DNA of 64,000 bases from Candidatus Borrarchaeum weybense (GCA_019057385.1 JAHQJS010000004.1:1012727-1076726), one strand, 5' to 3'; counted from the stretch's first letter, positions 6,877-52,462 are shown. Notes: generated by a model from the letters alone, not told the origin. Numbers and translations are program-made.

Positions 6877-6951
6877 TTTTAGGTGTACTAACTTTTTATA
6901 TTTTAGGGATACCTAACTTTTTATATTTTAGGGATACCTAACTTTTTTATA
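6877..6951. promoter_or_regulatory. Three tandem 24-25 bp units carrying DtxR-like palindromes (TTAGG-N4-CCTAA) upstream of feoA
   Basis: TTAGGGATACCTAA at 6903-6916 and 6928-6941; degenerate TTAGGTGTACTAA at 6879-6891. Confidence 0.8.
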
Positions 6952-7322
6952 AACTTTTCGCCCATGCCCAGCATTTCTTTAACACCTATCTCAGGAAAAT
7001 TGCACTTGCGGTGGAAGAAAAAAAATACCCTTAAATTGAAGAGAACCATGACTGAGCGCTTAAAAAAACTTATAACGTGTAAAACGATAGTCAATTGGTT
7101 GAAACTTTTCCTCAAAAACCAGAATTTGTGTAACAGAATTAAAACTGATTTCTGTCATCTTAAACAGTAAATTTCGGATTAAAATATGAGTTCAGTCTCT
7201 TTTTGGCATTTTTATGAAAAAATGGTTGGAAACTTTTTCATATAACACAGTAAAGACCATTAGGAGAGTGCTATCCCTATATCACCTAAGAAAGTTATAA
7301 AAAGTTGGCATACAAACTTTTA

Positions 7323-7336
7323 TTAGGTATACCGAA
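7323..7336. promoter_or_regulatory. Degenerate DtxR-like box
   Basis: TTAGG-TATA-CCGAA, one mismatch to the feoA boxes. Confidence 0.45.
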
Positions 7337-7826
7337 AACAGAGACACTTGCACGGCTTACTAGTTTTATCAACTTTATCAAACAAGTAGCAATAGGCCAA
7401 GAGTGTTTAAATATTTTCAAATCTTTTCATGCCAAACAGTTTCATTCAAGTGAAGTTCACTTAAATAAAGACGATGACTAAATGATCGCTTTTTGGTATC
7501 TATGGATTTTCTTTGTTGTCGGAAACGTAGAGCATGCTATTTCAGTCATGCCTTTTTGTTCGCCCTATCGTCTAGTAGCGGATACAAGGATGGAGTAACC
7601 ATGACCGACGATAAAAAAGAAACATATTGGCGTAAAATAATCAAGGTTTCAACAATACCAGCAACGGCTTCCCCGACATCTGTCCAAACGTGGAAAAACA
7701 CTGCAGGGAAAATCCCCGTCAGCACCCAAACTAAGGGGTAACTTTACTTTCCAGAAAAAGAAGTCCGTAAAAGGTTTCTGTGAACTAAAAATGAAGTTTC
7801 CAATAAACTCAGTATGGTAATGTTCC

Positions 7827-8921
7827 TTATCTCTCCAGAATGTCCCTCAAATTGATCAACAAAGTGTTATTCATTTTTCTCGTCCCGACTGCAGTACGAA
7901 AACAATTTTGTAGCAGTGGATGACTACTTAGATCTCTGACTAAGATACCTTTTTTCATTAATTCGTTGACGACTTCTGTCGCCGATAGGTCATCATGTTG
8001 AATTTTAACCAGGAGAAAGTTTGCTTTCGATGGAAAGACTTTAACAGGAAACTGTGATAATTCCTTTCCTAAGTATTCGCGTTCTTTTTTTATTTCTTCA
8101 GCTTTCTTTCGAACATAATTAAAATTTTGAAGTAGTTTAATTGTCATCTGTTGTGCAATGAGATTCACTGAAAATGGACCAATGACTCTTAGAAAATAGG
8201 ATGCTAACATCTCATTGGTGAATAAGAACCCCAGTCGCAAACCTGCAATTCCTGCTGATTTTGAGAATGTACTGAACACGATTAAATTATCAAATTCGCG
8301 AATTAGTGGTAACACCGAGTAATCTGCAAATTCCACATATGCTTCATCCACTATGACGATTTTATCAGTTTGAGTAAGTAGTTCTCTTATTTGTTCTTCA
8401 GAAAATTGATTGCCAGTAGGATTGTTTGGTGAACACATTACGATAAGCTTCGTTTTGTCAGAAGTCTTTTCCAGTATCTCGTTACAGTCGAGATTGAAAT
8501 CCTTTCCTAGGGAAACTGGGATATATCGTCCTCCTGCTAGTTCTGTAGTAATTTTATAAACAGAAAATGTAGGATCAATAGCGATTATTTCATCACCAGG
8601 ATTAATGAATATCCGTGGGAGCAGCTCAATTAACTCGTCAGATCCGTTCCCAATTACAACTTCGCTTACTTTTATATTAAAGAATTCTGCCATTGCTCGA
8701 CGCGCGTTTAAACTCCGTTCAGTAGGATAGGCTCTTATGTCTACTTCTTTCATGGCATCTTCGAATAATGTATCAAGCCATTCTTTTTCAATGAAGTAAT
8801 TTTCACTGGTACTTAGGCGAACTATTTCTGTTGGTTTGCTATCACTTAATAGTTCAAGGGCAGGATCTTCCCATGATTTCAATGACCTTGTTTCTTCTCT
8901 AATGAGATTTTCCCAGTCCAT
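7827..8921 (-). CDS. hisC: Histidinol-phosphate aminotransferase
   Basis: GNGSDELI, SPNNPTG, VDEAY, TFSKSAGIAGLRLG. Confidence 0.95.
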   Translation of the reverse strand: MDWENLIREETRSLKSWEDPALELLSDSKPTEIVRLSTSENYFIEKEWLDTLFEDAMKEVDIRAYPTERSLNARRAMAEFFNIKVSEVVIGNGSDELIELLPRIFINPGDEIIAIDPTFSVYKITTELAGGRYIPVSLGKDFNLDCNEILEKTSDKTKLIVMCSPNNPTGNQFSEEQIRELLTQTDKIVIVDEAYVEFADYSVLPLIREFDNLIVFSTFSKSAGIAGLRLGFLFTNEMLASYFLRVIGPFSVNLIAQQMTIKLLQNFNYVRKKAEEIKKEREYLGKELSQFPVKVFPSKANFLLVKIQHDDLSATEVVNELMKKGILVRDLSSHPLLQNCFRTAVGTRKMNNTLLINLRDILER

Positions 8922-8936
8922 TTAAATTCCCTACTT

Positions 8937-9923
8937 TTATGATTTGAAAGTGTTTAATTTTCTTATCTCTTCAAGAGAAAGAACTTGTCTTGGTGTGTGT
9001 ACAACAAGACCTTGAGCAAGCTTTCTAAGTTTAGGAATTAGTTCAATAAATAAATCTCGAGGAATTACAGTATTGAGTGCAACCCATCCTTCTTCAGCAA
9101 GGGGAGAGATTGTAGGGCGTTTTAATGCAGGTAAAGTGGCAAGGAGGGTGTCTACATTTTCTTCCTTGACGTTCATAAATATATGAAGCCGTTTCCGTGC
9201 ATCAACGACGCCTTGCAATAAGGTAAGCACATCAGACATTTTCTCTCGTTTCCAAGGATCTTTCAGGCTCTCCATATTTGCCAATAAAACAGCCTGAGAG
9301 TCACCTATTTGTTCTATGATTTTCAAATTGTTTGCTCTAATTGTTGTACCAGTTTCTGTGTTATCAATAATCGCATCAGCATCTTCTGGGGGCTTAGATT
9401 CTGTTGCACCAAATGATAGATGAAGGATTACTGATGGATTTTCACCACTTTTACCCCAAGGGGTAATAACCAATGGCTTTTTGTCACCAAACCGTTCCTT
9501 ATATTCTTCATTTTTGAGTATATATTCTGTAACTGTATTAATATATTCTGTACTAATTCTTAATGGATTTCCTTTAACAAAGAATTTTCTTAGAAGATCA
9601 GAAAAACTTTTTACGTCTTCCCATATCTCTGGAACAGCTAATACGATCTTCACATGTCCATATTCTAGTTTTGTTAAAATCTCTACATCTGATTGAGATT
9701 CTTGAATCCAATCTTCACCACTTATCCCAATATCATGTGCGCCTTGTTCAACCAAAGAGGGGATCTCTTGTGGTCTAAGGATTTTTACGCTTAACTCAGG
9801 ATCATTTATGTATGGCCTGTATGTCCTGTCATCGCCTTTAATGGCATAATTTGCCTCTGAAAATAATTTCAGTGTTCGTTCCCCTAGTGATCCTTTGGGA
9901 ATTACTAATTTCAATTGTTGCAT
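8937..9923 (-). CDS. hisG: ATP phosphoribosyltransferase, long form
   Basis: IPKGSL, RPQEIP, GATE, DAIIDNTETGTTIRANNL, C-terminal PTISPL regulatory domain. Confidence 0.95.
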   Translation of the reverse strand: MQQLKLVIPKGSLGERTLKLFSEANYAIKGDDRTYRPYINDPELSVKILRPQEIPSLVEQGAHDIGISGEDWIQESQSDVEILTKLEYGHVKIVLAVPEIWEDVKSFSDLLRKFFVKGNPLRISTEYINTVTEYILKNEEYKERFGDKKPLVITPWGKSGENPSVILHLSFGATESKPPEDADAIIDNTETGTTIRANNLKIIEQIGDSQAVLLANMESLKDPWKREKMSDVLTLLQGVVDARKRLHIFMNVKEENVDTLLATLPALKRPTISPLAEEGWVALNTVIPRDLFIELIPKLRKLAQGLVVHTPRQVLSLEEIRKLNTFKS

Positions 9924-10006
9924 TTTATCAACACCTTTACATAATATGAGTAAAAACTAAACACTCTATGAGTGTGTCTAACGATATAACTTGAGAAAAC
10001 TTATTT

Positions 10007-10107
10007 GCGGGGTCAAAGATCACGTTAATGGAGTGAAAATCAGAAAGAAACTTGGTTAAATAGATGGAAACGATTCCTCCACATCAGCTTCACCTAACAA
10101 TCCCCGC
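10007..10107. other. Candidate structured RNA between hisD and hisG
   Basis: GCGGGG (10007-10012)/CCCCGC (10102-10107) closing stem in AT-rich DNA, inner GTGAA/TTCAC; TATA-like box about 25 nt upstream on the minus strand. Confidence 0.3.
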
Positions 10108-10160
10108 GCAATTGCATTTTTTTTAAGAATATATAACTCTTTCTCAAAAAGCGATAAGTT

Positions 10161-11465
10161 TCAAAGTTGATATTCAAAGCATCTGTAGTGGGCTGGTAGA
10201 TTCTCCATTTCTGACAAAATCTTCGCTATCGGACCATAATCTTCAACTGCAGAACTTGGTGCCTCAACTATTGGAACAAACTTACCGCAATCAAGTACAG
10301 ATAGACCAGTTCTCCATTTTGCGACCTTTCCAGTTGGAAGAATATGATTTGAGCCAGCACCACCATAATCTTCAAATGGTATTGGAGTATTGAGAAGAAT
10401 TGTTCCTGCATTTTTTATCAATTTACTAATAGGTGTTGGGTCACTAGAGAGAATAAGTAAGTGTTCAGGAGCATAATCATTGATAAATTCAACGGCTTGG
10501 CTTATCTTTTTGGTAACGATAATTGCACCATAACGTCCTAGACTTTCTTCTATATATCGCTTCCTGGGTGAATCTTTGATTAACTCTTCCACAAAAACTT
10601 TTACCTGTTCAGCTAAATCTCTACTCGTTGTAAGACAAATCGCTGCAGAATCGTTTCCGTGTTCAGATTGTGCAAAAAGTTCACAAGCAATCGCTTCTAG
10701 ATTTATAGTCTCATCTGTGGCAAATATTATAGCTTCGCTAGGACCTGCTAGCATATCTATTCCAACATCCCCACTTACTATGTATTTTGCTACTGTTGGG
10801 TAAAGTCCTCCTGGCCCTAAAATTTTTGACACGACTGGTACACTTTCAGTTCCATAAGCCATCGCTGCAATCGCTTGCGAGCCTCCCACCGAAAAAACTC
10901 TGACTTTGCATTGTGAAAGATTCTTAATAATTTGAATTGCTGCAAGAGTTCCATTGTCAATCAATCCAGAGAGTGTTGGCGGTGAGCATATAACAATTTC
11001 TTCAACACCTGCAACTATTGCTGGAACGGTTGCCATGAGGACAGTTGATGGGTATCTAGCTTTTCCACCCGGAACATAAATGCCTATTCTGTCTAGAGGA
11101 ATCCATCTATTAGTGATCTTTACCTCATTGCTTAATGACATCTCGAAGTGTCTTGGAAACCGCTCAAAGAATTTTGTGTTATATTCAAAAAGCAGCTTGA
11201 ATAATCTTTCTAACGCGTGTATCTGATTCTCAGGGGTTTTATTATATGCCTTAGTTATGTCAATTTCATTTATTTCAACGTTCTGAATTGTAACTCTGTC
11301 ATATTTTGCAGTTAATTCAATAAGAGCTTTGTCTCCAGATGTTTTTACAGAAGTAATTATTTCGTTAACTGTTTCTATTATTGAGCGTTCGAGTACTCTA
11401 GATCTTTCAGTTAGCTTCTGTCGATCTTCACTAGTTAGTTCGTCTAAATTATAAATTGCAATCAT
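10161..11465 (-). CDS. hisD: Histidinol dehydrogenase
   Basis: GIYVPGG, YPSTVLM, DMLAGPSE, AQSEH, YAPEHL, SNHILPT. Confidence 0.95.
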   Translation of the reverse strand: MIAIYNLDELTSEDRQKLTERSRVLERSIIETVNEIITSVKTSGDKALIELTAKYDRVTIQNVEINEIDITKAYNKTPENQIHALERLFKLLFEYNTKFFERFPRHFEMSLSNEVKITNRWIPLDRIGIYVPGGKARYPSTVLMATVPAIVAGVEEIVICSPPTLSGLIDNGTLAAIQIIKNLSQCKVRVFSVGGSQAIAAMAYGTESVPVVSKILGPGGLYPTVAKYIVSGDVGIDMLAGPSEAIIFATDETINLEAIACELFAQSEHGNDSAAICLTTSRDLAEQVKVFVEELIKDSPRKRYIEESLGRYGAIIVTKKISQAVEFINDYAPEHLLILSSDPTPISKLIKNAGTILLNTPIPFEDYGGAGSNHILPTGKVAKWRTGLSVLDCGKFVPIVEAPSSAVEDYGPIAKILSEMENLPAHYRCFEYQL

Positions 11466-11585
11466 TTTGTCTCTCTCGATCGAACTTAATTGAGGAAGAT
11501 TTTACTAGTAAGTTTAAAAGTTCTTTTAATTTTGCGGAGACTACTATCATAATGTTTATTAAAAAGTTACGTGTGGATTCTTTAG

Positions 11586-11903
11586 GTGATTGATATGGTT
11601 AGTGAAGTTATTCTATCCTTTGTAGGCACAGACTTCATTGAAGGAAATTCCTCAGATAGCCCAATAACATTGCTTATTGATGAGTCAAACAAAAAACTTG
11701 TTCTTCAAGTTTCCCCCCAGTCAGGCTTTGTTGAACGCAGAACAGCTGAAAGACAAGCTAGAGGTATAGCAAAAATCGGCTTTGCTCTAAAAAATGGCAA
11801 CCGTGTAGGACATGGATTTGACTTAGATGTGGCTGCTGAAGGTGGTGGCGTTCCCGAACGACTACATAAAGAAGTCTGGAACAATTATAGTCGAGGTATT
11901 TAA
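11586..11903 (+). CDS. Small protein, putative divergent single gelsolin-like domain
   Basis: Pattern ITLLIDESNKKLVL..SGFVERRTAERQARGI..EGGGVPERL resembles the gelsolin repeat core; recognised by eye only. Confidence 0.45.
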   Translation: MIDMVSEVILSFVGTDFIEGNSSDSPITLLIDESNKKLVLQVSPQSGFVERRTAERQARGIAKIGFALKNGNRVGHGFDLDVAAEGGGVPERLHKEVWNNYSRGI

Positions 11904-12194
11904 CGCCTATCTTTTTAGGTATTGTATAATCCGCGAATAAATTTTTTATACTATTTTCGCAAGACCCCAAGCAGAAGGGGGATGAAATGCGCAAATCTCA
12001 AATATTGAGTTTTATTAGAGCCAAGAATATGATTTCTCAGGTTCTCAGCAAATATGATTTTTTTTCTTTGCTGTTAAATAAATTAGTTTTTACAGGCTAA
12101 TTTTGCTCAACCTAATAAGCCCATAAACTGAAAAGATATGTTTAAAAAGCAATTTTTTTAATACAAAATCAACTGAATAATACGGTGATTTCTT

Positions 12195-12905
12195 TTGAGT
12201 AGTGAATGGACGATTGATGATCGATTTACATTTCAAACAAGAGTTATTTGCCATCATTGTGGTGAGATTTTAAGCTTCAACCAACCTGGGTATAATAAAC
12301 TCGATAAATTTCCTGCAACGTGTCCGAAGTGTGAAGGAAACTGGGGCATCGGGAATAAAGATTATCATTATAGTAAAAACTATTGGGCTTTGCGTGCAGA
12401 GCCTCTAAAAAGAAAGATCAAAGAGAAGACTAAAAAAGCTCGTAAGAAAGCTGTTGAACAAGAATTAGAGGAACTAGAAGATCTGGAAGATCTAGAAGCG
12501 GAACTAGAAGCACTAGGAGAGGAAGAGATAGAAGCAGAATTAGATGAGTTAGTAGAGGAAGAATTAGAAGAAGTTCCAGAAGAAAAACTTTCAGAGGCAG
12601 AAATAGCAGAAATATCGAAAGAGTTTATGCAATTAGATGGAATTGGCAAGAAAAGTGCTGAAAAAATAATTAGCTTGGGTGTAACCTCAATTGAAGAGTT
12701 AGCTACGCTTGAAGTAGATATGGTAGCGGAAACTGCAGATGTCTCCACTAAATCATTGAGAAAATGGATTAAGAATGCACAGAAGTACCTAGAGGAAGAA
12801 GCGGAAGAAGAGAAAGAAGAAGACGATGAAGAAGAAATTGACTTAACTGACCTGGAAGCAGAACTTGAAGCACTAGGAGCCGAAGAAGATTTAGAAGATG
12901 AATAA
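12195..12905 (+). CDS. Zn-ribbon plus helix-hairpin-helix protein with very acidic linkers
   Basis: CHHC...CPKC; LDGIGKKSAEKI HhH; DLEAELEALG occurs twice. Confidence 0.75.
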   Translation: MSSEWTIDDRFTFQTRVICHHCGEILSFNQPGYNKLDKFPATCPKCEGNWGIGNKDYHYSKNYWALRAEPLKRKIKEKTKKARKKAVEQELEELEDLEDLEAELEALGEEEIEAELDELVEEELEEVPEEKLSEAEIAEISKEFMQLDGIGKKSAEKIISLGVTSIEELATLEVDMVAETADVSTKSLRKWIKNAQKYLEEEAEEEKEEDDEEEIDLTDLEAELEALGAEEDLEDE

Positions 12906-12940
12906 GTGTACTTGAATTTAAGCGTGGGTGGTTAGTTTAG

Positions 12941-13324
12941 ATGGTTAAGAAAATTAAAATTTTCACTGAGGCCACAGGAGAAGTAATTGCAGAATTAAGT
13001 GACAAAAACCCGAAAACAGCTGAAGCAATTTGGAATGCACTCCCTTTTGAAGCTAGTGCAAATACCTGGGGTGACGAGATCTATTTTAGTATTCCCGTAG
13101 AAATAGGTGAGGAAAACGCTCAGGAAACAGTTGATATGGGTGATCTTGCTTATTGGCCTCCTGGCAATGCGATGTGTATTTTCTTTGGTCCAACGCCTAT
13201 GAGTCGAGGGAACGAAATAAGACCTGCAAGCGAAGTTAATGTTTTCGGAACTATACCAGTAGATCCAAAGGTTTTCAAAAAGGTTCGTGCGGGTAGTAAA
13301 ATCCGAGTAGAAAAAGCAGAATAA
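12941..13324 (+). CDS. Cyclophilin-like fold protein (TM1367/DUF369 family)
   Basis: PKTAEAIWNALP, WGDEIYF, GDLAYWPPGNAMCIFFGPTP. Confidence 0.9.
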   Translation: MVKKIKIFTEATGEVIAELSDKNPKTAEAIWNALPFEASANTWGDEIYFSIPVEIGEENAQETVDMGDLAYWPPGNAMCIFFGPTPMSRGNEIRPASEVNVFGTIPVDPKVFKKVRAGSKIRVEKAE

Positions 13325-13533
13325 ATCACTCCAGAAACTTTTGATGATGAACCCATATCTTTTCAATGAAATCTTCTCTTTTCAAAAAAGAATTAACCAG
13401 AGTTTATTTTTTTGCACTCATATTTTTTCAATAGAACACAAATCTTTTCAATATCATATTTTTGATACCATATCGGTTCAATATAAAATTTTATTGACTT
13501 ATATTCCAAACTTGCTTCTAAATTTTAATTTTT

Positions 13534-14028
13534 TCATTTGAAGAACGACGTTATTATAGTAACTATTACATACCAATTAAAAATAAATCCAATTATTCCA
13601 AAGACAATTCCGATGCCTAGAGAACCCACAAGCCAATAAATATATCTCCTAACAAAGAGAAATCTTATTATTCTGTAATACAATCGTTCACCGCATACCC
13701 TGTTAAATTCTAAGTAAACGCCATTTCGTACATTATTTAAGGTAGTATTCTCCTTTTCCTTACTCGTATTACAATGTATGACTATATCGCTTAATTTTCC
13801 ATAGTAAAGCAATCGTCCAATCAGAAATATGCTACCACATCCAAAACCTAAGAAAAGTGCCCACCATAAAATACTTAGTATTCCAAAAAATCTCAACTTG
13901 ATTTGAACAAGCCCAAGTTCTACTAGAAGAGTAGGTACTAATACCGCGGCATGAGAGATTGATTGTGATGAATATGTATTAAGAAGTGCTATTCGTGCAT
14001 TTTGTTCTAATTCTTCTATTGTCGCCAT
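13534..14028 (-). CDS. Hypothetical membrane protein (about 3 TM)
   Basis: Hydrophobic segments; GAGGAG SD upstream. Confidence 0.6.
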   Translation of the reverse strand: MATIEELEQNARIALLNTYSSQSISHAAVLVPTLLVELGLVQIKLRFFGILSILWWALFLGFGCGSIFLIGRLLYYGKLSDIVIHCNTSKEKENTTLNNVRNGVYLEFNRVCGERLYYRIIRFLFVRRYIYWLVGSLGIGIVFGIIGFIFNWYVIVTIITSFFK

Positions 14029-14554: not shown

Positions 14555-14655
14555 TTTGTCACCTCCATATCTTCTTGTTTTATTCTATAAAGTCAATGAA
14601 ATTCTTTGCCATAATCTTGAGACTTGTATTAGTCACTTTTATTTAATTTTATCAA

Positions 14656-36499: not shown

Positions 36500-37801
36500 A
36501 TGATGACCCCATCAGAAAAGAAAAAGTTAGCAATTATACACTATACGGCGCCACATTTGGAACACGGAGGTGTTGAAAGCGTAATTTCTGAGCATACTGA
36601 ACACCTTTGTGAATATTTGGATGAAATTCATCTAATTTTTGGACGTGGTGGAGGCGGATGGGAGGGTAAAAACGTCATTGAACATCAGATCCCAGAATTA
36701 CATGGATTCCATCCAGATATTGTGCTAATACAGGATATTATCTTTCAAAAAGGCTTGTCAGATGAGAATCTAGTAGGCTTTAACAGAATAAAAGAAAGAA
36801 TTAAAACCCGACTGTGTCAAATTCTTGAGGAAAATGAAATAGACAAGATTATAGTCCACAATATCCCTTCAATGCCCTTCAATTTTCCAGCGCTTGTAGC
36901 TATCAACGAAGTCGCTGAAAAATGTAGCGGCAAAATGATATATTGGATTCACGATTCCATAGTATTTCGGGATATGTATCAGGATCGACTCAACCAATAT
37001 CCATTCACAGAAGTACACCATGCACACAAAAATATTGAATACGTCACAATTACTCACTTTAGAGCCATGCAGTTTGCAGAAACAGAACATGAACAATTTA
37101 GGATAGAAGATATCACAGTAATTCCAAATGGAATCGATCTCGATGATTTTTTAAAGTTAGACAAACACACGTTGGAACTTAAAGAACATCTGGAGATTAA
37201 TCACAATGATTATATTATTTTAGTCCCCGTAAGGGTGACTCCTCGGAAAAATATTGAACTTGCGCTCTATGTTGTTAATGAATTGCGCAATCTGATACGC
37301 ACTGGTAATATTAAATTATTGATATCTGGACCGCCTGATAACCAGGCATACATAGCTGGTAAAAAATATATGCGCTACTTGAAAGACACTTCAACAAAAT
37401 TAGGCGTATCTAAAGATGTCATTTTTTGTCATAACCTCATAAGTAAAGAGAGGGTCAGGAAGGAAGGTCGGATTATCAAATGGGGTATCTCTGACATTTA
37501 TAATCTTGCAGATATAGTCTTTGTTCCCAGCAAAGAGGAAGGCTTTGGTTTGCCAATCATTGAGGCTGGTGCAAGTCGAAAACCATTATTTTGTAGTCGA
37601 ATAGACCCTTTCGAAGAATTAGTAAGGGACAACATTGAAGCATATATGTTTGGTTTAGATGAACCCCCTAAAACAATTGCCTTTCGAATTCATAGATTTC
37701 TTATCTCTAGTGCTGTGGATCTGAATTTCAGAAACGTCTTGCAAAACTTCATGTGGTCAAAAATCGTCAAAAATAAGGTTTTACCTCTGTTATTCAGTTA
37801 A
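36500..37801 (+). CDS. GT4 glycosyltransferase (mannosylglucosylglycerate synthase-like)
   Basis: IIHY...GGVESVI, HNIPSMPFN, PVRVTPRKNIE, PSKEEGFGLPIIEA. Confidence 0.75.
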   Translation: MMTPSEKKKLAIIHYTAPHLEHGGVESVISEHTEHLCEYLDEIHLIFGRGGGGWEGKNVIEHQIPELHGFHPDIVLIQDIIFQKGLSDENLVGFNRIKERIKTRLCQILEENEIDKIIVHNIPSMPFNFPALVAINEVAEKCSGKMIYWIHDSIVFRDMYQDRLNQYPFTEVHHAHKNIEYVTITHFRAMQFAETEHEQFRIEDITVIPNGIDLDDFLKLDKHTLELKEHLEINHNDYIILVPVRVTPRKNIELALYVVNELRNLIRTGNIKLLISGPPDNQAYIAGKKYMRYLKDTSTKLGVSKDVIFCHNLISKERVRKEGRIIKWGISDIYNLADIVFVPSKEEGFGLPIIEAGASRKPLFCSRIDPFEELVRDNIEAYMFGLDEPPKTIAFRIHRFLISSAVDLNFRNVLQNFMWSKIVKNKVLPLLFS

Positions 37802-42429: not shown

Positions 42430-42431
42430 CT

Positions 42432-43570: not shown

Positions 43571-44791
43571 TTGACAAAAGAATCAGATATTGCCAAAATT
43601 CGAAACGCAGCGATAATAGGCACGGGCATAAACGTTTTTCTTTCAATTATAAAATTCTTAGCGGGCTCTATTACGGCAAGTATCTCTCTCATCGCTGATG
43701 GAATTAACTCTTTGTCAGATGTCTTCCCATCTCTTGCAGTGGCCGTCGGGATTAAAATTTCAGAACGCCCACCTACTGAGGACTTCCCGTATGGATTCCA
43801 TAAAATCGAAAATTTCGTCAGTTTATTTATCTCCCTCGCTATTTTTTATGGCGCTTATGAAATGATAACAGCAGCTATTGATCGTTTTGTGGCTATTCAA
43901 GTAATAGAAAATCCAATAGTTGGAATTATTACTGCAATTGTTTCTATCATCACACTGTTCGTAATTTCCACATATAAAATCAAAATCGGTAAACAAACTA
44001 ACTCTCCAAGTTTGCTTGCTGATGGCGAACACAGCCGTGTAGATGTTTTTGCCTCGTTGGCTGTGCTAATTGGAGTTTCGGGGGCATTTTTCGGCATATA
44101 TATTATGGATGCCATCGCTGCAATTATCGCAGCAATTTTTGTAATTAGGGCTGGCTATGAAACATTCAAAGCTTCTACAAAAGTGTTACTTGATGCTTCT
44201 ATTCCTTATGACGCCCGAGAGCAGATAAAAGAAATAGCCCTAGAAACTTCTGGTGTCAAAAAAGTACAGTGGATACGTGCACGAGGTTCTGGCAAGTATT
44301 TTTTCGCTGAATTGAAGATTGAGGTAGATGCACACATTGATGTGGAGAAGGCTCAACTACTAGTTGAGAAACTTAAAGCGAACATAAAAAACCAAGTGGA
44401 GAATATCGATAACGTCCTCATCTTACTAGAACCTAAGAAAAAGGAACTGATACGCATCGCTGTACCAATAGAAGAGGATCAAGGTTTAAAATCTCCAGTT
44501 TTTCCTCGTTTCGGGGAGACCGCGTATTTTGCCATTATTGATATAAGAGATGATGCGTTATCCGATATGACAATTTTAGAAAACCCGTTTAGGAATGAAC
44601 CAAAACGGAAAGGAATATTGATAGCTGAATGGTTAGGCGATCAACAAAAAGTCGATAAGGTATTCATTAAAGAGCCCCTAAAGAAGGGACCAACGTATGC
44701 GTTCGATAGCTATTATGTTCAAGTTACCGAAACTAAACTTGATTCACTGAAGGACATAATAGCGGAGATCAGCAAAAAAAAGGTGCCATAA
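43571..44791 (+). CDS. Cation diffusion facilitator fused to a C-terminal NifB/NifX domain
   Basis: SISLIADGINSLSD, PYGFHKIE, LLADGEHSRVD; RIAVP..RFGETAYF. Confidence 0.9.
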   Translation: MTKESDIAKIRNAAIIGTGINVFLSIIKFLAGSITASISLIADGINSLSDVFPSLAVAVGIKISERPPTEDFPYGFHKIENFVSLFISLAIFYGAYEMITAAIDRFVAIQVIENPIVGIITAIVSIITLFVISTYKIKIGKQTNSPSLLADGEHSRVDVFASLAVLIGVSGAFFGIYIMDAIAAIIAAIFVIRAGYETFKASTKVLLDASIPYDAREQIKEIALETSGVKKVQWIRARGSGKYFFAELKIEVDAHIDVEKAQLLVEKLKANIKNQVENIDNVLILLEPKKKELIRIAVPIEEDQGLKSPVFPRFGETAYFAIIDIRDDALSDMTILENPFRNEPKRKGILIAEWLGDQQKVDKVFIKEPLKKGPTYAFDSYYVQVTETKLDSLKDIIAEISKKKVP

Positions 44792-44801
44792 AAATTCTTT
44801 T

Positions 44802-45383
44802 TTAACTTTGCTCTTGACAGAATTTAACAAACTTCTGCCCATGAAACCACGTTCTGCTCAGTAAATGCTGGTGTTCCTGTTTTATCGGGTTGACTCTAAG
44901 ACTTATTCGTTCGAGATTGGCGAGTTTTTCTAATCCCTTAATCTCAGTTATTTGATTGATGGTGAGATCCAACTCTTTAAGGTTGATCAGCGTCTCCAAT
45001 TCCTTAAGCTCAGAAATTTGGTTGCGTGAGAGATTCAGATATTCGAGATTTGTAAGCGTTTCCAGACCCTTGATCTCACTAATCTTGTTCCGATATAGAC
45101 CTAATCTTCTAAGCTTCGTCAAGTTATCCAGACCTTTAATCTCTTCGATCTGGTTTTTATTGAGGTACAGCTCTTGGAGGCTGGTGAGCGTTTCCAGACC
45201 CGAAATTTCTTTTATCGTATTCTCACAGAGAATAAGACTTTGGAGAGAAGTAAGATCTGCCAAATCTTCGATCTCTTCAATGTCGCTAATTCCCTCGTGA
45301 TAACGAAAGAGCCGGGATCTACCTGTTTCAGCTTCTCTTTCAACAAAATATTGCTTTCCTTTAAAAGTAACTGAGTCGGTCAT
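44802..45383 (-). CDS. Leucine-rich repeat protein (SDS22-like)
   Basis: LxxLxLxxNxIxEIKGLExL repeated about 6 times. Confidence 0.92.
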   Translation of the reverse strand: MTDSVTFKGKQYFVEREAETGRSRLFRYHEGISDIEEIEDLADLTSLQSLILCENTIKEISGLETLTSLQELYLNKNQIEEIKGLDNLTKLRRLGLYRNKISEIKGLETLTNLEYLNLSRNQISELKELETLINLKELDLTINQITEIKGLEKLANLERISLRVNPIKQEHQHLLSRTWFHGQKFVKFCQEQS

Positions 45384-45565
45384 GGATACTCACTTAATAC
45401 ATACTTAACGATCTATATAAATGCTAATTGAAGGAAGAGAATTAATAATAGTTCCTGAACAAAGTGAAACTTAAAATAAGATTGATTTCTTCTTAGATTA
45501 ATGCAGTTCATTATTTTAGTTGACATTTATGATCATATTTCGTTATCAGAGTAAGACTTATAAAT

Positions 45566-45604
45566 TGTGCATAAGCACATAAATACAGGTTTAGGTTTAC
45601 CTAA
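45566..45604. promoter_or_regulatory. Composite operator upstream of the DtxR gene
   Basis: TGTGC-ATAA-GCACA (45566-45579), 11 nt, TTAGG-TTTA-CCTAA (45591-45604). Confidence 0.75.
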
Positions 45605-45752
45605 ATCACCCATAAATTAATCTTGTTATCACATTCGATAGTTTTTACATTCAAGTTATTGAAACCAAGCATGAGTTACTTAAGGATATAATTACCGAGA
45701 TAGGCGAAAGAAAAGCACCCTGAAAAATCCTAGTATTTAAAATCAGATTTAG

Positions 45753-46184
45753 GTGTTTGAACAAAAAATGGAGAAAAATAAGATAAACAAAATCGAAGAA
45801 GAATACCTAAAAACCATTTACCAACTTATACAAAGTAAAGGTCAAGCTAGAGTTTCTGATATTGCTAAGAAACTATCTATTCGACCAGCTAGTGTGACAG
45901 AAATGATTCAAAAGTTATACAAAAAGGGCTTCGTCTCCTATGAACGTTACAATCCCATAACTTTAACGCAAGATGGTGAGGTTTTAGCAAAAACCGTAGT
46001 CAAAAGGCATGAAGTATTGAAAGAATTCCTACAAAGATTTCTTGGGATCGATAAAAAAATTGCGTCAGAAGATGCGTGCAAAATGGAACATGTGGTTCAT
46101 GCTGAAACTATGACTCAGCTAATAAATTTCATGAACTTCATTCGTAAAACCCCAAATTTCATGAAATGGCAGAATTTGGACTAA
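45753..46184 (+). CDS. DtxR/MntR-family metal-dependent repressor
   Basis: EEYLKTIY, ARVSDIA..PASVTEMIQKL, RHEVL..FL, DACKMEH. Confidence 0.95.
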   Translation: MFEQKMEKNKINKIEEEYLKTIYQLIQSKGQARVSDIAKKLSIRPASVTEMIQKLYKKGFVSYERYNPITLTQDGEVLAKTVVKRHEVLKEFLQRFLGIDKKIASEDACKMEHVVHAETMTQLINFMNFIRKTPNFMKWQNLD

Positions 46185-46294
46185 AAGACTTTAAGAATTT
46201 GCTATATAGACATTTCAAAGCAAATCTTGTTTAAGGATTGACCTATTATGATCACCTTAGATTTTAAATCTGTATATTTTTTGGAGGTGAAAAT

Positions 46295-46933
46295 ATGATC
46301 GAACGAATTGTTGTGAGTTCACAAAGTCAAGGGGGATTGGACGACATGGTGTCACCCGTGTTTGGACGATGTCCTATCTATACGATCGTAGATATTGATT
46401 TGGATAAAAAGGAAATCAAAGAAGTTACCACGGAAAATAATCCCGCTATGGGCGCTATGGGAGGCGCAGGCATTCAAGCCGCACAATTAATCGGTAATCT
46501 GGGTGCTAAAGCCGTCATCTCAGGAAATTTTGGCCCTAACGCCTTCATAGCCCTCCAGCAACTGGGAATAAAAATTCATGCTGGTGTTTTCGGCATTTCT
46601 GTAAAAGAAGCTGTAGATCAGTATCTTGCAGGAAGTTTAACACCCGTTACAGGTCCTACCGCTCCAATGCATGCGGGCATGGGCATGGGCATGGGTCGTG
46701 GTATGGGTATGGGACGCGGCATGGGTATGGGTCGTGGTATGGGTATGGGACGCGGCATGGGTATGGGAATGGTTACTCCCCAACCTGGAGCGCCGATGGT
46801 TGCCCCTCCACCTACACAACCTTTAAGTCGAGAAGATGAAATTAAATTACTTAAAGACCACCTAAAAGCTATTGAAGAAGAAGTTAGTCGTCTAAAGTCC
46901 CGTCTTAATGCATTAAAAGAAGAGGATAAGTAA
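46295..46933 (+). CDS. NifB/NifX protein with GRGMGM repeats and DUF5320-like coiled-coil tail
   Basis: FGRCP, GAGIQAAQ, GNFGPNA; (GRGMGM)x4; SREDEIKLLK. Confidence 0.9.
   Translation: MIERIVVSSQSQGGLDDMVSPVFGRCPIYTIVDIDLDKKEIKEVTTENNPAMGAMGGAGIQAAQLIGNLGAKAVISGNFGPNAFIALQQLGIKIHAGVFGISVKEAVDQYLAGSLTPVTGPTAPMHAGMGMGMGRGMGMGRGMGMGRGMGMGRGMGMGMVTPQPGAPMVAPPPTQPLSREDEIKLLKDHLKAIEEEVSRLKSRLNALKEEDK
46676..46769 (+). repeat. 18-bp coding tandem repeat (GRGMGM)
   Basis: GGTCGTGGTATGGGTATG and GGACGCGGCATGGGTATG units alternate. Confidence 0.85.
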
Positions 46934-46982
46934 GACTGACTCTCTTCAGCTTTCTTTTTTTACTTCATTTAAATTTTGGATC

Positions 46983-47984
46983 TTATCCTTCACTCATTAT
47001 TTTTTTCGTGACATCTGATTTGAATTTGCGGAGAATGAACTCGTGGTTCATGTAACTAAGTTTTACTATTTTATTTTCTTCTAAGAGCTTATTTATAACT
47101 TCTTCGGGTTGTAAACCTCTTTCAGAAAAAAACTTGTGTGCATAATCGACCATCATCGGATGAACTGAGGTTATTGCTAGAAATCCGTGAATAGGATCTT
47201 TTGAAACACTATCAAACAAAGCATCTTCATAACCTGTAAGTAATTCCACATGTTTCTTTCCTAAGTGATTTGAGAATATTTCATGAGCCATTAAAATAAT
47301 TTTTTCATCTGCGGGTTCAACCCATGGTTCTGCTGGAGGTCTCGTGGGTATCGCAATATAAGCAATATCTACCTTCATTTCGGAAAGAAATTGAGCAATT
47401 TTGGTGATTTCATCCTCTCGATCATTAATCCCTTTAATGAGCATTGTCTCCGTTATGATCCGTCCCTTATATTTTTTCGAAAAATTTACTATGCCGTCTA
47501 ATATTTCATCGAGTTTTAGCTTTGGATGTGGTCTATTAATCTTTTTCCAGATTTTTTGAGTTATTGCATCAATCTTTATGGATACAGTATCTCCATAGTA
47601 TATGTCGTCTTTAACATCATCTCGATACATTAAAGACGCGTTTGTAATGACTGCCACTTTTGTAGAACGTTCTTTTTTTATTTCAGCGATTTCAAAACCT
47701 AGATTTTTGTCTAATGTTGGTTCTCCGTCAGGAACAAAAGTAATATAGTCTATGGACGCATCAAACTTCTTAGCTTCTATTACAATTCTTACAAGTTCAT
47801 CGGGGTTGTAGTACTCGTTACGTTCGATTTCAAAATGTTGTGTTCTGCCAATCTGACAATAAACGCAAGAATAACTGCAATTTTTATAAAGTACATTATT
47901 AACCCCCAAAGACATGCCTAATCGTCTCGATGGAACAGGTCCAAATACTACTTTTTCCGTCATTGATGCTTCACCTGAATGCAA
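46983..47984 (-). CDS. Radical SAM protein (COG0731-like)
   Basis: FGPVPSRRLGMSLG, CSYSCVYC, DGEPTL; probable start at MTEK. Confidence 0.92.
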   Translation of the reverse strand: MHSGEASMTEKVVFGPVPSRRLGMSLGVNNVLYKNCSYSCVYCQIGRTQHFEIERNEYYNPDELVRIVIEAKKFDASIDYITFVPDGEPTLDKNLGFEIAEIKKERSTKVAVITNASLMYRDDVKDDIYYGDTVSIKIDAITQKIWKKINRPHPKLKLDEILDGIVNFSKKYKGRIITETMLIKGINDREDEITKIAQFLSEMKVDIAYIAIPTRPPAEPWVEPADEKIILMAHEIFSNHLGKKHVELLTGYEDALFDSVSKDPIHGFLAITSVHPMMVDYAHKFFSERGLQPEEVINKLLEENKIVKLSYMNHEFILRKFKSDVTKKIMSEG

Positions 47985-48236
47985 GTGACGCTTGCATTTT
48001 TTTTACTTTTGCGATAATTGTCGTGTTTATCAATATTTCTTTAAATGGCATTGAAAGATTTTGAAAAGCTTTAGTGACACCAGCATTGAAACATTATTTT
48101 GCATAGATATTTCTATAGTTAGAAAAAAGCAAAATCGAATGGCGGAATTCTTCCGTGAAATATTTAAGTAAGCTCCCGAGAAAATATTTAGAGGTCTTTT
48201 TATAATTGATAATAAAAACGAGGAAAGAGATAGAAA

Positions 48237-48923
48237 ATGAGGAAAGAGATAGCGGTTGTGGGAGTTGTTATTTTAGTTTTTGGGCTAGTTTTAGCAGCCG
48301 CAGGAACGAGGACAACGTACCAAAGCGTTGAATATACTGAAAATCTACTTGACACTTCTTACACTCTTCCAGACAATTACTATGTGTATTGGTACACGGA
48401 TCTAGATGCAGGAGATAAGGTATCAGGATCGATAGAAACCACCCAACCAGTGAACTTCTTTATTTTCACTTCGAATCAGTTCAACGAATGGCAGACAACC
48501 TACGCATACTCATTAACTGCACCCTCAGTTGTCACAAGAACTAATTCGCAAAGTATGGCATTCAGCGCAACTATCCAGTCCACAGATACGTATTATTTAG
48601 TTGTGTATAACGATGGACTCACAAGTTGCGAAATAACTTCAATACAAGTTGACAGAGCTTACTATGAAACTGTAGAACGTCGAGATTATACATTAAACAT
48701 GATCGGCGGAATATTGGCTTTAGTTGGGATTATTATAGCAGCAGTTGGCGCTACACGAAAAGAAGTTGAAAAAGAAGCTCCACTACCTACTCCAGTTGAG
48801 CCTGCACCAGTAACACCTAAACCTGAGCCGACAATAGAACCAAAACCGGAGTTTTGTCCTTCCTGTGGTTCGGAAGTTCCAGCTGGTACGGAATTCTGTC
48901 CGCACTGCGGTTCTGCAGTTTAG
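48237..48923 (+). CDS. Membrane-anchored beta-sandwich (GOLD/p24-like) protein with cytoplasmic zinc ribbon
   Basis: Signal/TM, GDKVSGSI..VNFFIF..TYYLVVYN, second TM, Pro-rich linker, CPSC..CPHC. Confidence 0.65.
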   Translation: MRKEIAVVGVVILVFGLVLAAAGTRTTYQSVEYTENLLDTSYTLPDNYYVYWYTDLDAGDKVSGSIETTQPVNFFIFTSNQFNEWQTTYAYSLTAPSVVTRTNSQSMAFSATIQSTDTYYLVVYNDGLTSCEITSIQVDRAYYETVERRDYTLNMIGGILALVGIIIAAVGATRKEVEKEAPLPTPVEPAPVTPKPEPTIEPKPEFCPSCGSEVPAGTEFCPHCGSAV

Positions 48924-48974
48924 CACGGATTCCATACGATTTTTATTTTTTTTAAGATTTGCGTCAGCATCACT

Positions 48975-49481
48975 CTATTTCTTCATAGGTAGAGCGAATG
49001 TCTCTGCAAGGAGTTTTACTTGTTCTTTTGCTTCCCAGAATTGACGCGGAAAATAAATTTCGATTATTCCACGAAGCCTGAAACTAATGTCATTGAATTC
49101 ATCAATGAATGCCTGGGCATCATCCTTCGTTTTTATGTCCTCTATGATTGTTTTCGACTTTTCAATGATGTTCTCAACGGTCGTTTGTTCCACTTCTTCG
49201 ATAAAACGACTAAACGTTGATATAGGGGAAATTATTTTTTGTAATCGAACGACGGTAGTTTTTCCTATCTCTCGAACTTCAACAAATCCAGTTCTTTCTA
49301 AGACTTCTAAGTTCTCACGAACTGTTGCAGTGTCAAGTCCAGTGAATTTTTCTAATATGCTTGCAGCTGCGCATCCACCAAGCCCTATTGTCGTCATCAA
49401 GAGCTTCATGCGTTCTTCTGAAGAAAACGCTTCTACCACATCGCAGCATAATGGCTTTGGCACGAACTTTAACTTTGACAT
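48975..49481 (-). CDS. ArsR-like winged-helix regulator
   Basis: AFSSEERMKLL, TVRENLEVLERTGFV..IGKT; vicinal CC near the N-terminus. Confidence 0.7.
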   Translation of the reverse strand: MSKLKFVPKPLCCDVVEAFSSEERMKLLMTTIGLGGCAAASILEKFTGLDTATVRENLEVLERTGFVEVREIGKTTVVRLQKIISPISTFSRFIEEVEQTTVENIIEKSKTIIEDIKTKDDAQAFIDEFNDISFRLRGIIEIYFPRQFWEAKEQVKLLAETFALPMKK

Positions 49482-49597
49482 ACAATTCCCTCTCTATATA
49501 ATATAGAATCGTTCACATAAAACCTTTAGTCAATAATCTAAATTCACTTAATTCATAAAAATTATGGAAGAGGAAATGTTCTACATCGAATTTTCTG

Positions 49598-50506
49598 CTA
49601 AGAAAATCTTAGACTTTGAAGAAGTCTTTCTGCAATTAGTTTCAATGATACGGCTGCAGGACTCTCTGGCGCATAGGTAACAATTGGTTCTGCTTGGCCA
49701 ATAGAATATGGTACATTCTTATCGAGTGGGATCTCTCCAAGCACCTCAACGTTATTCTTTCTGGCTATTTCGAGTATCTGGACTTTTGACGGTTCATGTA
49801 TATCCGATTTGTTGATAACAAGTCCAATCCCTAGTGGAAAATGTTGTGCAATATATGTGATCCTTTCGAAAGCTTTCATTGCAGAAGGTGTTGGTTCAGT
49901 TACGATGATGACATAATTCGCTCCCGTTATAGCGGCTATCACTGGGCAACCTGTCCCGGGCGCACCGTCAACTAAAAGAATATCTGCATTTACCTTTTGT
50001 GCCTCTTCTCTTCCCCGCTTTTTAATTTCTGTAACAATCTTGCCAGATCCAGTCTCACCGATAGCTATCTGTCCCGTAATTATTGGAAATCCGTCTGTAT
50101 TGTTCTGTGAACTGATAACTTTTCCCCCCCGTACTGCACGTATCTCTATTGCCTCTTCTGGACAAAGTATTGCACATTTTCCACAGCCTTCACAGAGATA
50201 TGGTATGATTATTGGTGGTTCTGCCAAATCTGGTTGCATTATTGCGTTTTCACTGCAAGATACAACGCATTGTCCACAATGGGTACATCTGTCAGCAAGG
50301 ATGAAAGCTTTTTCTGACACCTCAATTTCGTCTTCAACTCTTCCATCGTCCTTTGCGCTCAAGAGCAATGCTAAATTTGGTGCGTCGACGTCAGCGTCCA
50401 ACGCCACAAGGTTTAGATTCTTTTCGCGAAATAAAATGGCTAGTGCTGCAGCAACTGAAGTTTTTCCAACTCCGCCTTTTCCCGAGACTACCACAACTTC
50501 TTTCAT
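49598..50506 (-). CDS. MinD/ParA-like P-loop ATPase with inserted 2x[4Fe-4S] ferredoxin (COG1149)
   Basis: SGKGGVGKT, DADVDAPN, CTHCGQC/CEGCGKC, DGAPGTGC, VTEPT. Confidence 0.93.
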   Translation of the reverse strand: MKEVVVVSGKGGVGKTSVAAALAILFREKNLNLVALDADVDAPNLALLLSAKDDGRVEDEIEVSEKAFILADRCTHCGQCVVSCSENAIMQPDLAEPPIIIPYLCEGCGKCAILCPEEAIEIRAVRGGKVISSQNNTDGFPIITGQIAIGETGSGKIVTEIKKRGREEAQKVNADILLVDGAPGTGCPVIAAITGANYVIIVTEPTPSAMKAFERITYIAQHFPLGIGLVINKSDIHEPSKVQILEIARKNNVEVLGEIPLDKNVPYSIGQAEPIVTYAPESPAAVSLKLIAERLLQSLRFS

Positions 50507-51477
50507 TTTAAAAGCAACTCCTGAGTTTTTTCTGCCAGTTGAATTAATATTTTCCCGCTTGTGGACTCTGGGTTATAATTCACTATGGGAATTCCTTTGA
50601 CATAGCTTTTAATCAGTTCATCATCGTATGGAATCCGTGCTAGCAACTCCACTGATTTTTTCTGGCATGTTGAATCAATTATTTCACTATCCGCAATATC
50701 AGATCGATTTAGTACTACTTTCGAATCAAGCATCATGACGTTCTTGGTCAGTTCGATTATTAGATCCAAATCGTGAGCCCCAAAGGGTGTTGGCTCTGTT
50801 ACAGCTAATACGAGATCAGCCCCTTGCAAAGCACGGATGACGTCGCAATGGGCACCTGGGGCAGTATCGATTACCACAATATCATAGTTTTTTCCATTTT
50901 CTTTGACTTTCTTAAACGCCCTTTCTCTTGCGGCATCTACTGCGATAGCAGATTCTGGTTCTCTCAATTTTAACTCGCCACTGACAATATCGACACCATT
51001 ATTTTGCCCTTCAGATGTATAACCGACAATCTTCTCCTTGTCTACTATTGCATCGGATGGGCACACTAATTGACATACTTCGCAACCTGTGCAAATTTCT
51101 GGGAACAACAGGGGTGGCTTATCGCCTACCTGCAATATAGCGTGAGCCCTACAAAATTCTGCACACTTCCCACAAAATGTGCAGTTTTCCAAAATAAATT
51201 CTGGAAGAAAACGTTTGATTACTTGCTCATTCTTTAATTCGGCACCCAAAAGAATGGCAACATTAGGACTGTCAACATCACAGTCGATGATTAAAACTCT
51301 TTTGCCCATATTTGCTAACTGGGCTGCAAGGTTAATGGCTACGACAGTTTTACCAGTGCCACCTTTGCCGCCAGTGCATGCCAGTATCGGTACGTCAACT
51401 GGTTTCCTATGGAAGATTTCTGATGGAAGAGATGTCATCTTTCTTAAACTCCTGCATTTTAATAATTCTCTTGTCAA
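50503..51477 (-). CDS. MinD/ParA-like P-loop ATPase with inserted ferredoxin (COG1149), paralog
   Basis: GGKGGTGKT, DCDVDSPN, CTFCGKC/CTGCEVC, TEPTPFGAHDL; start probably downstream (MTSL). Confidence 0.93.
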   Translation of the reverse strand: MTRELLKCRSLRKMTSLPSEIFHRKPVDVPILACTGGKGGTGKTVVAINLAAQLANMGKRVLIIDCDVDSPNVAILLGAELKNEQVIKRFLPEFILENCTFCGKCAEFCRAHAILQVGDKPPLLFPEICTGCEVCQLVCPSDAIVDKEKIVGYTSEGQNNGVDIVSGELKLREPESAIAVDAARERAFKKVKENGKNYDIVVIDTAPGAHCDVIRALQGADLVLAVTEPTPFGAHDLDLIIELTKNVMMLDSKVVLNRSDIADSEIIDSTCQKKSVELLARIPYDDELIKSYVKGIPIVNYNPESTSGKILIQLAEKTQELLLK

Positions 51478-51492
51478 ATGTTTAAGAGTTAA

Positions 51493-51876
51493 TTATAAAA
51501 AACCAGCCTTTTTTGGTTTCGTTGGCTCTTCTAAGGACTTATATTTACCAGAAAGATAGCGATCAATTGCTTCTTGCACAGTTAAGTGTAGATCACATTG
51601 TATTATTTCAAACCCTAAGGAATTCAAGGCTGTAAAAGCACTTGGACCGAAATTTTCAGCAATGGCAACACTACACCCTAACTGGGCAAGAAACTGGGTG
51701 GATTGAATTCCAGCCCCACTACGTGCATTCCTCGCATTATTTTCATATAATTCAACGTTGATTACCTTTTTGTTATCATCCACTTCAACAACTGTCCACA
51801 TGAAGCACCGACCGAAGCGATCATCAACAGGTGAATCTAGTCCTTCAGGCAAGCTTGATGCTACGCCGATCTTCAT
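51493..51876 (-). CDS. NifB/NifX-family protein
   Basis: RFGRC, GAGIQS, NFGPSA. Confidence 0.9.
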   Translation of the reverse strand: MKIGVASSLPEGLDSPVDDRFGRCFMWTVVEVDDNKKVINVELYENNARNARSGAGIQSTQFLAQLGCSVAIAENFGPSAFTALNSLGFEIIQCDLHLTVQEAIDRYLSGKYKSLEEPTKPKKAGFL

Positions 51877-51916
51877 AAAATCTCCTATTTTTTTGATGTT
51901 ATTTACAAATTACCAA

Positions 51917-52399
51917 TTACCAATTTTGGCCGCCACCGCCGCGTCCACCGCCACCGCCGCGTCCACCGCCACCGCCGCGTCCACGTCCTGCACCTCTACC
52001 TGCGCCACCGCCGCGTCCACCAATTCCTGACTTAGCTCCCGCTGTTGGCCCTGAAGTGGAAGTTAATGCTCCTGTAAGATATTGATCAATTGCCGCCTTT
52101 ACTGTTGCGCCAAAAACACCTGTATATATCTGTATACCCATTTGTTGGAGAGCCGTAAAGGCATTTGGCCCCACGTTGCCTGTCAAAACTACAGTTGCGC
52201 CCGCGGTGACAACCAGCTGGGCTGCTTGAATACCTGCACCTGAAAAACTTTCTGCAGCCATATTCGGAACAACTTCGACATTCCCTGTATCCGAATCGTA
52301 AATTGTGAAAGCTGCACATCTCCCGAATCTGGGATCTATAATGACTTCTAACCCGCCTGGGGGTTGAGAACTTACTGCAATCTTCATTTTATACACCAT
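51917..52399 (-). CDS. NifB/NifX-family protein with Gly/Arg-rich tail
   Basis: RFGRC, GAGIQAAQ, GNVGPNA; GRGGGG repeats (18-bp units at about 51930-52020). Confidence 0.9.
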   Translation of the reverse strand: MVYKMKIAVSSQPPGGLEVIIDPRFGRCAAFTIYDSDTGNVEVVPNMAAESFSGAGIQAAQLVVTAGATVVLTGNVGPNAFTALQQMGIQIYTGVFGATVKAAIDQYLTGALTSTSGPTAGAKSGIGGRGGGAGRGAGRGRGGGGGRGGGGGRGGGGQNW

Positions 52400-52423
52400 A
52401 TTTCTACTGTTTTTTTAAAAATT

Positions 52424-52462
52424 TTAGGCATCCCTAAAAATTTTTTTGTGTGTCTAAGCACA
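52424..52462. promoter_or_regulatory. Composite operator upstream of the NifX-NifX-MinD-MinD operon
   Basis: TTAGG-CATC-CCTAA (52424-52437), 11 nt, TGTGT-CTAA-GCACA (52449-52462). Confidence 0.75.

Follow-up and report, generated by a model that had tools for sequence, protein, structure and literature searches.

The DNA considered here is a 64-kb window (C4:1012727-1076726, the whole stretch analysed) from the 4.18-Mb, 37% G+C assembly of an Asgard archaeon (G000), and it holds a split feo operon for iron uptake, a dtxR gene encoding a small DtxR/MntR-family regulator (D1), and an operon of NifX-type carriers (PF02579) and MinD/ParA ATPases with two [4Fe-4S] motifs, both recognised by Pfam. 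Ahead of all three stands the palindrome TTAGG-N4-CCTAA, hereafter the box, perfect at 6903-6916, 6928-6941, 45591-45604 and 52424-52437. In its longer form, tTTAGG-N4-CCTAAa, this element is in our judgement likely to be the operator of a DtxR/MntR-family metal sensor. A link of feo and the NifX/MinD genes to a DtxR-family repressor in one predicted regulon is well supported by position and conservation, and iron supply probably controls both sets of genes jointly; the binding protein, the metal sensed and the repressive effect are inferred. Comparison within the family, which consists of a single genus, draws on four congener genomes beside G000 (G001-G004, of which G004 is 100% complete), and the wider comparison on 121 genomes of the phylum (Asgard). 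A protein 73% identical to one encoded in G000 is labelled Promethearchaeota (Asgard). Three further proteins recur below: D2, the second DtxR-family paralog of the genome; D3, a winged helix-turn-helix (wHTH)-FeoA protein encoded at a second feo locus, feoAB2; and D3b, the paralog of D3 in the window.

The box in the window and the genome

Four perfect boxes in the window compare with 0.05 expected, and four or more were seen in 0 of 100 shuffles. The copies ahead of feoA form a 25-bp tandem array of 2.9 units, each comprising one box and an A/T-rich, TATA-like stretch 80-130 bp upstream of the gene; as units of one array, the three boxes are not mutually independent. The original prediction was right that two of them are perfect and one degenerate, but the degenerate copy is that at 6879 and not that at 6928; it has three mismatches at N4 spacing, or one if the spacer is a base shorter. 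Its single boxes before the DtxR gene and before the NifX operon are both perfect as described, and its degenerate site at 7323 differs from the consensus at one position. This last site, ~525 bp upstream of feoA inside a 1-kb gene-free spacer, is doubtful and may be a decayed or distal copy. One-mismatch sites also occur at 37400 and 63874, and with 7323 they make three where ~2 are expected by chance; the former falls inside a glycosyltransferase open reading frame (ORF) and the latter lies ~400 bp away from both an AsnC gene and a multi-wHTH gene, and each is probably a chance match. An Rfam scan of the spacer at 6800-7830 gave no match, and the ORFs at 7493-7741 (82 aa), 6964-7170 and 52364-52963, which belong to no family, look spurious.

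A genome-wide scan finds seven perfect boxes, six of them intergenic, against 0.55-0.85 expected under Markov models of intergenic DNA (crude gene calls gave five, since the spurious ORF at 52364-52963 overlies one site). The three perfect boxes outside the window lie in the promoter of feoAB2 on contig C7, before a PEMT-like methyltransferase gene and inside a flavodoxin ORF. Both feo loci of the genome carry the box close to TATA-like elements.

Conservation of the box within the genus

The feoAB2 box stands 77 bp before the gene for D3 (231 aa), which takes the place of a separate FeoA and is followed by FeoB (661 aa), and it is perfect in each of the five genomes, including G002, where it borders on the same flavin adenine dinucleotide (FAD)-enzyme gene at the edge of a contig. 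In an alignment of the five promoters (66% identity per column on average), no invariant stretch is longer than TTTAGG.A.TCCTAAA. The NifX operon is present in G000, G002 and G003, with a perfect box at the same place in all three, and here the half-sites are kept despite spacers of CATC, TTTC and TAAA (+ strand). In these NifX promoters a TATA-like element follows the box after 2-7 nt, its centre 24-28 nt ahead of the ATG that opens the conserved MKIAVS; in the window the distance from the box to the likely start codon of NifX (ATG 52385-52387) is 36 nt. This arrangement is consistent with an archaeal promoter that has a short leader or none, with the box lying over the TFB-recognition element (BRE). 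The same order of box and then TATA-like element is seen in both feo promoters, so that the same direction of response would be expected at feo and at NifX.

The NifX box sits in the spacer between NifX and a DUF134 gene that was absent from the gene list of the original prediction. Distal of it lies a second palindrome, TGTGT-CTAA-GCACA, which the G002 and G003 NifX promoters keep as TGTG(C/T)-N4-GCACA and which in its strict form is unique in the genome; it is probably the site of another regulator, either DUF134 or the operon's own HTH_20 protein. In G003 a gene combining NifX with DUF5320 also has a one-mismatch box, 34 bp upstream.

At an ATP-binding cassette (ABC)-transporter ATPase locus, the orthologous promoters of G002 (C103) and G004 (C58) each hold a perfect box, and in G000 (C4:764782-768480) one half-site has decayed (ACAGGTTGACCTAA), so that membership of the predicted regulon varies within the genus. 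A perfect box inside the coding sequence of a 509-aa MtrA-MtrH fusion in G001 (C83) and G004 (C52) is most likely a coding coincidence.

Table 1. Features of the window and the D2 gene (positions counted from the first letter of the window unless a contig is given).
Feature	Position	Strand	Remark
Split feo operon	3378-6798	-	Pfam
D3b, wHTH-FeoA protein	3378-4019	-	Paralog of D3
Small wHTH ORF	4016-4348	-	In split feo operon
FeoB membrane half, 458 aa	4434-5810	-	Pfam; 4-nt overlap with G-domain gene
FeoB G-domain half, 230 aa	5807-6499	-	Pfam
feoA	6565-6798	-	Pfam
25-bp tandem array	6877-6947	none	Boxes 6928-6941 and 6903-6916 perfect, 6879-6892 degenerate
One-mismatch site TTAGGTATACCGAA	7323-7336		Upstream of feoA
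Leucine-rich-repeat (LRR) protein gene	44802-45383	-	In extra DNA between CDF-NifX gene and dtxR
Duplicated promoter cassette, ~225 bp	45400-45627	+	Copy of DUF134 3' end, intergenic DNA and NifX promoter
Duplicate of CDF gene 3' end	45628-45725		Follows cassette
D1, two-domain DtxR/MntR-family regulator, 143 aa	45753-46184	+	Pfam
NifX-domain protein with DUF5320 tail (IssA-like architecture)	46295-46933	+	Downstream of D1
NifX/MinD target operon	48975-52399	-	Pfam, NCBIfam
HTH_20 protein	48975-49481	-	Pfam
MinD/ParA-2x[4Fe-4S] (second)	49598-50506	-	Pfam
MinD/ParA-2x[4Fe-4S]	50503-51477	-	Pfam
NifX (second)	51493-51876	-	Pfam
NifX	51917-52399	-	Pfam
Perfect box TTAGGCATCCCTAA	52424-52437		2 nt upstream of TATA-like TTTTTAAAAAAA (52410-52421)
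Second palindrome TGTGT-CTAA-GCACA	52449-52462		25 bp centre to centre, distal of box
DUF134 (PRK04217) DNA-binding protein gene	52555-52905	-	Just upstream of 52424 box
D2, second DtxR-family paralog, 154 aa	C4:877777-878241

The box beyond the genus

In other Asgard families the box accompanies the genes of DtxR-family regulators themselves. Canonical three-domain dtxR genes (PF01325, PF02742 and FeoA/SH3) have a perfect box 13-60 bp upstream in G115, G102, G062 and G068, in the first two of these as a tandem of two copies 28-29 bp apart, and the dtxR of G010 has a one-mismatch box touching its start codon. The small feoA genes of G112, G088 and G111 likewise carry perfect or one-mismatch boxes. 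Each of these boxed dtxR or feoA loci spans ~3.2 kb, for which ~0.004 perfect boxes are expected, and their recurrence connects the box with both DtxR-family genes and feo across Asgard archaea. Within the sampled Asgard genomes, by contrast, the NifX operon has been recruited in this genus only.

A copied promoter upstream of dtxR

The perfect box 149 bp upstream of the D1 gene has a different history from those at feo and NifX. It lies within a cassette that carries, in order, TGTGC-ATAA-GCACA (45566-45579), the box and the TATA-like element cataaatta, and that is ~90% identical to the DUF134-NifX promoter of G003, both palindromes and TATA-like element included. The box at 45591 is thus part of a copied NifX promoter and is not independent evidence for the motif; nor do the two promoters offer two independent cases of a fixed 25-bp phase between TGTGC-N4-GCACA and the box, an idea that was dropped for the same reason. 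Between the CDF-NifX gene and dtxR (44792-45752) there are 960 bp in G000 vs 30 bp in G002, and in G002 no box with up to two mismatches was found either before dtxR or before its CDF-dtxR operon. The copied cassette and the short, boxless gap of G002 indicate that the arrangement in G000 arose by an insertion that brought in the LRR gene together with the copied promoter. Autoregulation of D1 is possible as a recent trait confined to this genome. The copied CDF 3' end that follows the cassette is nearer to the G002 sequence than is the present end of the CDF gene. A truncation of the CDF-NifX gene (43571-44791) by the insertion was considered and rejected, the gene being of full length by BLASTP and 45628-45725 a duplicate of its 3' end.

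Conservation in orthologous promoters, a check that the original prediction had proposed, is found at feoAB2 (five of five genomes) and at NifX (all three genomes with the operon) but not at dtxR. The prediction's window-wide picture is weaker than stated, as the clustering owes much to one tandem and one segmental duplication.

Candidate binding proteins

The genome encodes two paralogs with PF01325 and PF02742, D1 and D2. In D1 these domains score 67.5 bits (cut-off 26) and 68.1 bits (cut-off 27), its recognition helix reads PASVTEMIQKL, and its ligand positions are H86, C109, E112 and H113, which align with His77, Glu99, Glu102 and His103 of Bacillus MntR. Both proteins end after domain 2, lacking the third, SH3-like (FeoA-type) domain, and are thus not DtxR sensu stricto; the closest solved relatives of D1 are MntR structures (E ~1e-24). 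C109 of D1, at the place of MntR Glu99, occupies what we take to be the position of Cys102 in the iron site of DtxR, and a cysteine at this place in D1 and D2, together with feo as a target, favours Fe(II) as the signal. D1, D2 and the box-associated DtxRs of other Asgard archaea have a recognition helix P(A/P)SVTEM in common, with H86, C109, E112 and H113 invariant, so that either paralog could read the box.

D2 has orthologs in G002, G003 and G004 (87-90% identity), and an ortholog of D1 was found among the congeners in G002 only (84%). On these comparisons D2 appears at least as good a candidate as D1 and is the likely binder, with D1 predicted to be able to read the same box through a nearly identical recognition helix; D3 ranks third. 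Around the D2 gene (C4:873000-883000) no box with up to two mismatches was found, and there is no sign of D2 self-regulation. The gene closes a row whose other members specify a cupin, an enzyme of the enolase superfamily, an MtmB-like methyltransferase and a thiamine pyrophosphate (TPP) enzyme, a row with neither an evident metal link nor a box.

Neighbouring genes

A histidine-biosynthesis gene row encloses the split feo operon together with the 1-kb spacer that holds its promoter, all on the minus strand, with His_biosynth, GATase and IGPD genes at 1032-2976 and aminotransferase, HisG and HisD genes at 7827-11465. A search with the FeoB G-domain found no ortholog of the split locus in the four congeners. 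D3-type 'FeoA' proteins of 210-231 aa occur in Asgard, Bathyarchaeia and Nitrososphaerota; ahead of the FeoA domain they have a wHTH at the N terminus and then a helical region rich in His (with H74, H80, H85, W115 and H118 invariant), and they fold like three-domain IdeR/DtxR, with no Pfam DtxR domain detected. CDF and MgtE-type transporters are encoded near the NifX cluster. In one wetland metatranscriptome, short contigs, some ~99% alike, cover parts of the IssA-like, HTH_20, MinD and NifX2 genes, but they include neither start sites nor promoters and are not proof of transcription.

Comparison with known systems

In Corynebacterium and Mycobacterium, DtxR and IdeR are metal-activated repressors of iron uptake that bind a 19-bp iron box, TTAGG-N9-CCTAA. 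The arms of that box are like those found here, D1 and D2 have the Cys-Glu-His primary metal site, and DtxR/IdeR structures (1c0w, 1u8r and 7b1y) are among the structure matches; the spacing, however, is 9 rather than 4, D1 and D2 are without the SH3-like third domain, and the promoters concerned are of the sigma-70 and not of the archaeal BRE/TATA type. Bacillus subtilis MntR (PDB 1on1 and 4hx4), the best sequence match of D1 (E 2e-23 to 6e-24), has the same two-domain architecture and a very similar recognition helix, but D1 has Cys for Glu99 and Lys for Glu11, and the targets here are feo genes.

A closer parallel in the operator is offered by TroR, a DtxR-family protein of Haloferax volcanii, whose motif from chromatin immunoprecipitation sequencing (ChIP-seq), TTTAGGC-NNN-CCTAAA, has equal half-sites and an equal 4-nt spacing, often in more than one copy per promoter (PMC10783522). 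Under iron-replete conditions TroR represses genes of iron uptake, and it also activates dpsA (PMC10783522). Its targets in the haloarchaeon are siderophore genes and dpsA, whereas the predicted targets of the box are feo and NifX/MinD.

For the target genes themselves, the nearest relatives in kind are two. The ORP complex of Desulfovibrio vulgaris includes Orp3 and Orp4, with two [4Fe-4S] motifs, and MrpORP, with a NifX-type domain (PMC6345978); the genes here encode IPR003731/PF02579 domains and MinD/ParA ATPases like Orp3/Orp4, but the orp operons are driven by sigma-54 and OrpR and not by a DtxR box (PMC6345978). The MrpORP equivalog NF041136 (cut-off 450 bits) is not reached in NCBIfam, where the matches are at domain level only (28-75 bits). 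IssA (SipA) of Pyrococcus furiosus joins a NifX domain to a cationic tail and is expressed in an iron-dependent manner (PMC5524996), a likeness seen here in the NifX domain with a DUF5320 tail. The NifX/MinD genes, whose function the original prediction called unknown, are thus not entirely uncharacterised. Methanococcus voltae shows a joint rise of FeoA, FeoB, DtxR and two homologs of IssA (NifX-domain) in cells that do not sense Fe(II) (PMC8516115). Such co-induction is the behaviour predicted for the regulon proposed here, with the difference that the evidence in M. voltae is proteomic and without a defined operator, and here comes from a cis-element.

Proposed mechanism and alternatives

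Under the reading we favour, a metal-loaded dimer, most likely with Fe(II), would bind the 14-16-bp palindrome, which abuts the TATA box and so would overlap the BRE, and the bound dimer would keep the TATA-binding protein (TBP) and transcription factor B (TFB) off the promoter. When Fe(II) runs low the repressor would leave, and both feo importers and the DUF134-proximal NifX-NifX-MinD/Fer4-MinD/Fer4 operon would come on together; in this genome the pair of D1 and IssA-like genes would join the regulon via the copied promoter. The core of the original prediction, that the box joins feo and the NifX/MinD genes in one regulon, has gained from its conservation in congeners, its adjacency to canonical dtxR genes and its likeness to the TroR motif.

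Several observations weigh against this reading. The genome-wide total of seven boxes is not above the ~3-5 predicted from composition alone, and the congeners hold 3-4 boxes each vs 1-8 for a reversed control pattern, so that the case rests on position and conservation and not on abundance; conservation, in turn, weighs less than it appears to, the compared genomes of the genus being close kin. One perfect box lies within the flavodoxin ORF, probably by chance, and another (C7:799482) precedes the PEMT-like methyltransferase gene, which has no metal link and no ortholog in the congeners. At 26 NifX loci in other Asgard families there is no box at any spacing of 2-10. NCBIfam places D1 and D2 nearest to MntR, that is to manganese, models, just under the cut-off (123.7 and 131.2 bits, vs 138 for the equivalog NF003025), and a box immediately upstream of a TATA element could in principle activate rather than repress.

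That the sites might be chance matches or pieces of repeats with no regulatory role is nonetheless very improbable. The unremarkable genome-wide count and the origin of several copies by duplication speak for it, but it leaves aside the intergenic enrichment, half-sites that stay invariant across five genomes while spacers and flanks vary, and the recurrence of the box before dtxR and feoA in other families. More weight, though still no great likelihood, attaches to the view that the box is an operator whose signal is manganese or another metal, or that the NifX operon is activated rather than repressed. The two-domain form of D1 and D2, their best matches to Bacillus MntR structures (E 4e-24) and MntR models, and the CDF and MgtE-type transporters nearby would suit a metal other than iron, and the dpsA gene of Haloferax is a precedent for activation (PMC10783522); the targets, however, are two feo systems, the ligand set has its Cys at the place of MntR Glu99, and the box geometry is equal at the feo and NifX promoters, which leads one to expect an equal direction of response.

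Other alternatives concern the protein. The original prediction made the local D1 the master of the regulon, repressing itself through the box at 45591 and controlling feo and the NifX operon, and in its favour D1 is a bona fide DtxR-family protein with a perfect box upstream, sits within the NifX/CDF/IssA-like cluster and has the recognition helix of the box-associated Asgard DtxRs. Yet that box belongs to the copied NifX promoter and is absent ahead of the G002 ortholog (up to two mismatches), which follows its CDF gene after 30 bp. Furthermore, no D1 ortholog was found in G004, complete as it is and with its feoAB2 box kept, nor in G003, where both the feoAB2 and NifX boxes are kept and the syntenic gap is too short for dtxR. 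With D2 as a rival candidate, mastery by D1 is doubtful, although it remains the most probable of the alternatives weighed here. Less probable than either D1 mastery or another signal is a regulon read by D3 as a divergent three-domain protein (wHTH, His-rich helices and FeoA/SH3), each feo operon then being self-regulated. The AlphaFold model of D3 (mean predicted local distance difference test score, pLDDT, 81) finds full-length Foldseek matches to IdeR, SloR, ScaR, MtsR and DtxR (E 6e-9 to 1e-6), positions H74, R75, E76, H80, H85 and H118 are conserved, and in four genomes its gene, the first of feoAB2, comes directly after a conserved box. On the other hand, the SVTEM signature is missing from its putative recognition helix (VPVSDIENVIAIA), the Pfam DtxR domain is not detected, the global TM-score is only ~0.33, and D3 may simply be the FeoA of its operon. 

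Significance

A DtxR-family box on a BRE/TATA promoter is well known, and what is gained here is a hint at function rather than a new mechanism. Clusters of NifX-like, MinD-ferredoxin, DUF134 and DUF5320 genes are widespread in anaerobes, and their predicted membership of a regulon with Feo is a functional hint for ORP- and IssA-like clusters. More tentatively, and at somewhat less than an even chance, the iron-starvation response of archaea in general may include the NifX/MinD-ferredoxin (ORP-like) and the IssA-like genes, which would have been recruited to the DtxR regulon several times independently, this genus included; here the process would have been caught in progress, with a copied composite cassette of second palindrome, box and TATA element newly creating autoregulation of D1. 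The regulon described is among the first cis-regulatory reconstructions for an Asgard archaeon. If it is true, production of the NifX/MinD clusters would be expected under Fe(II) shortage, in keeping with a role in the handling or mobilisation of Fe-S material.

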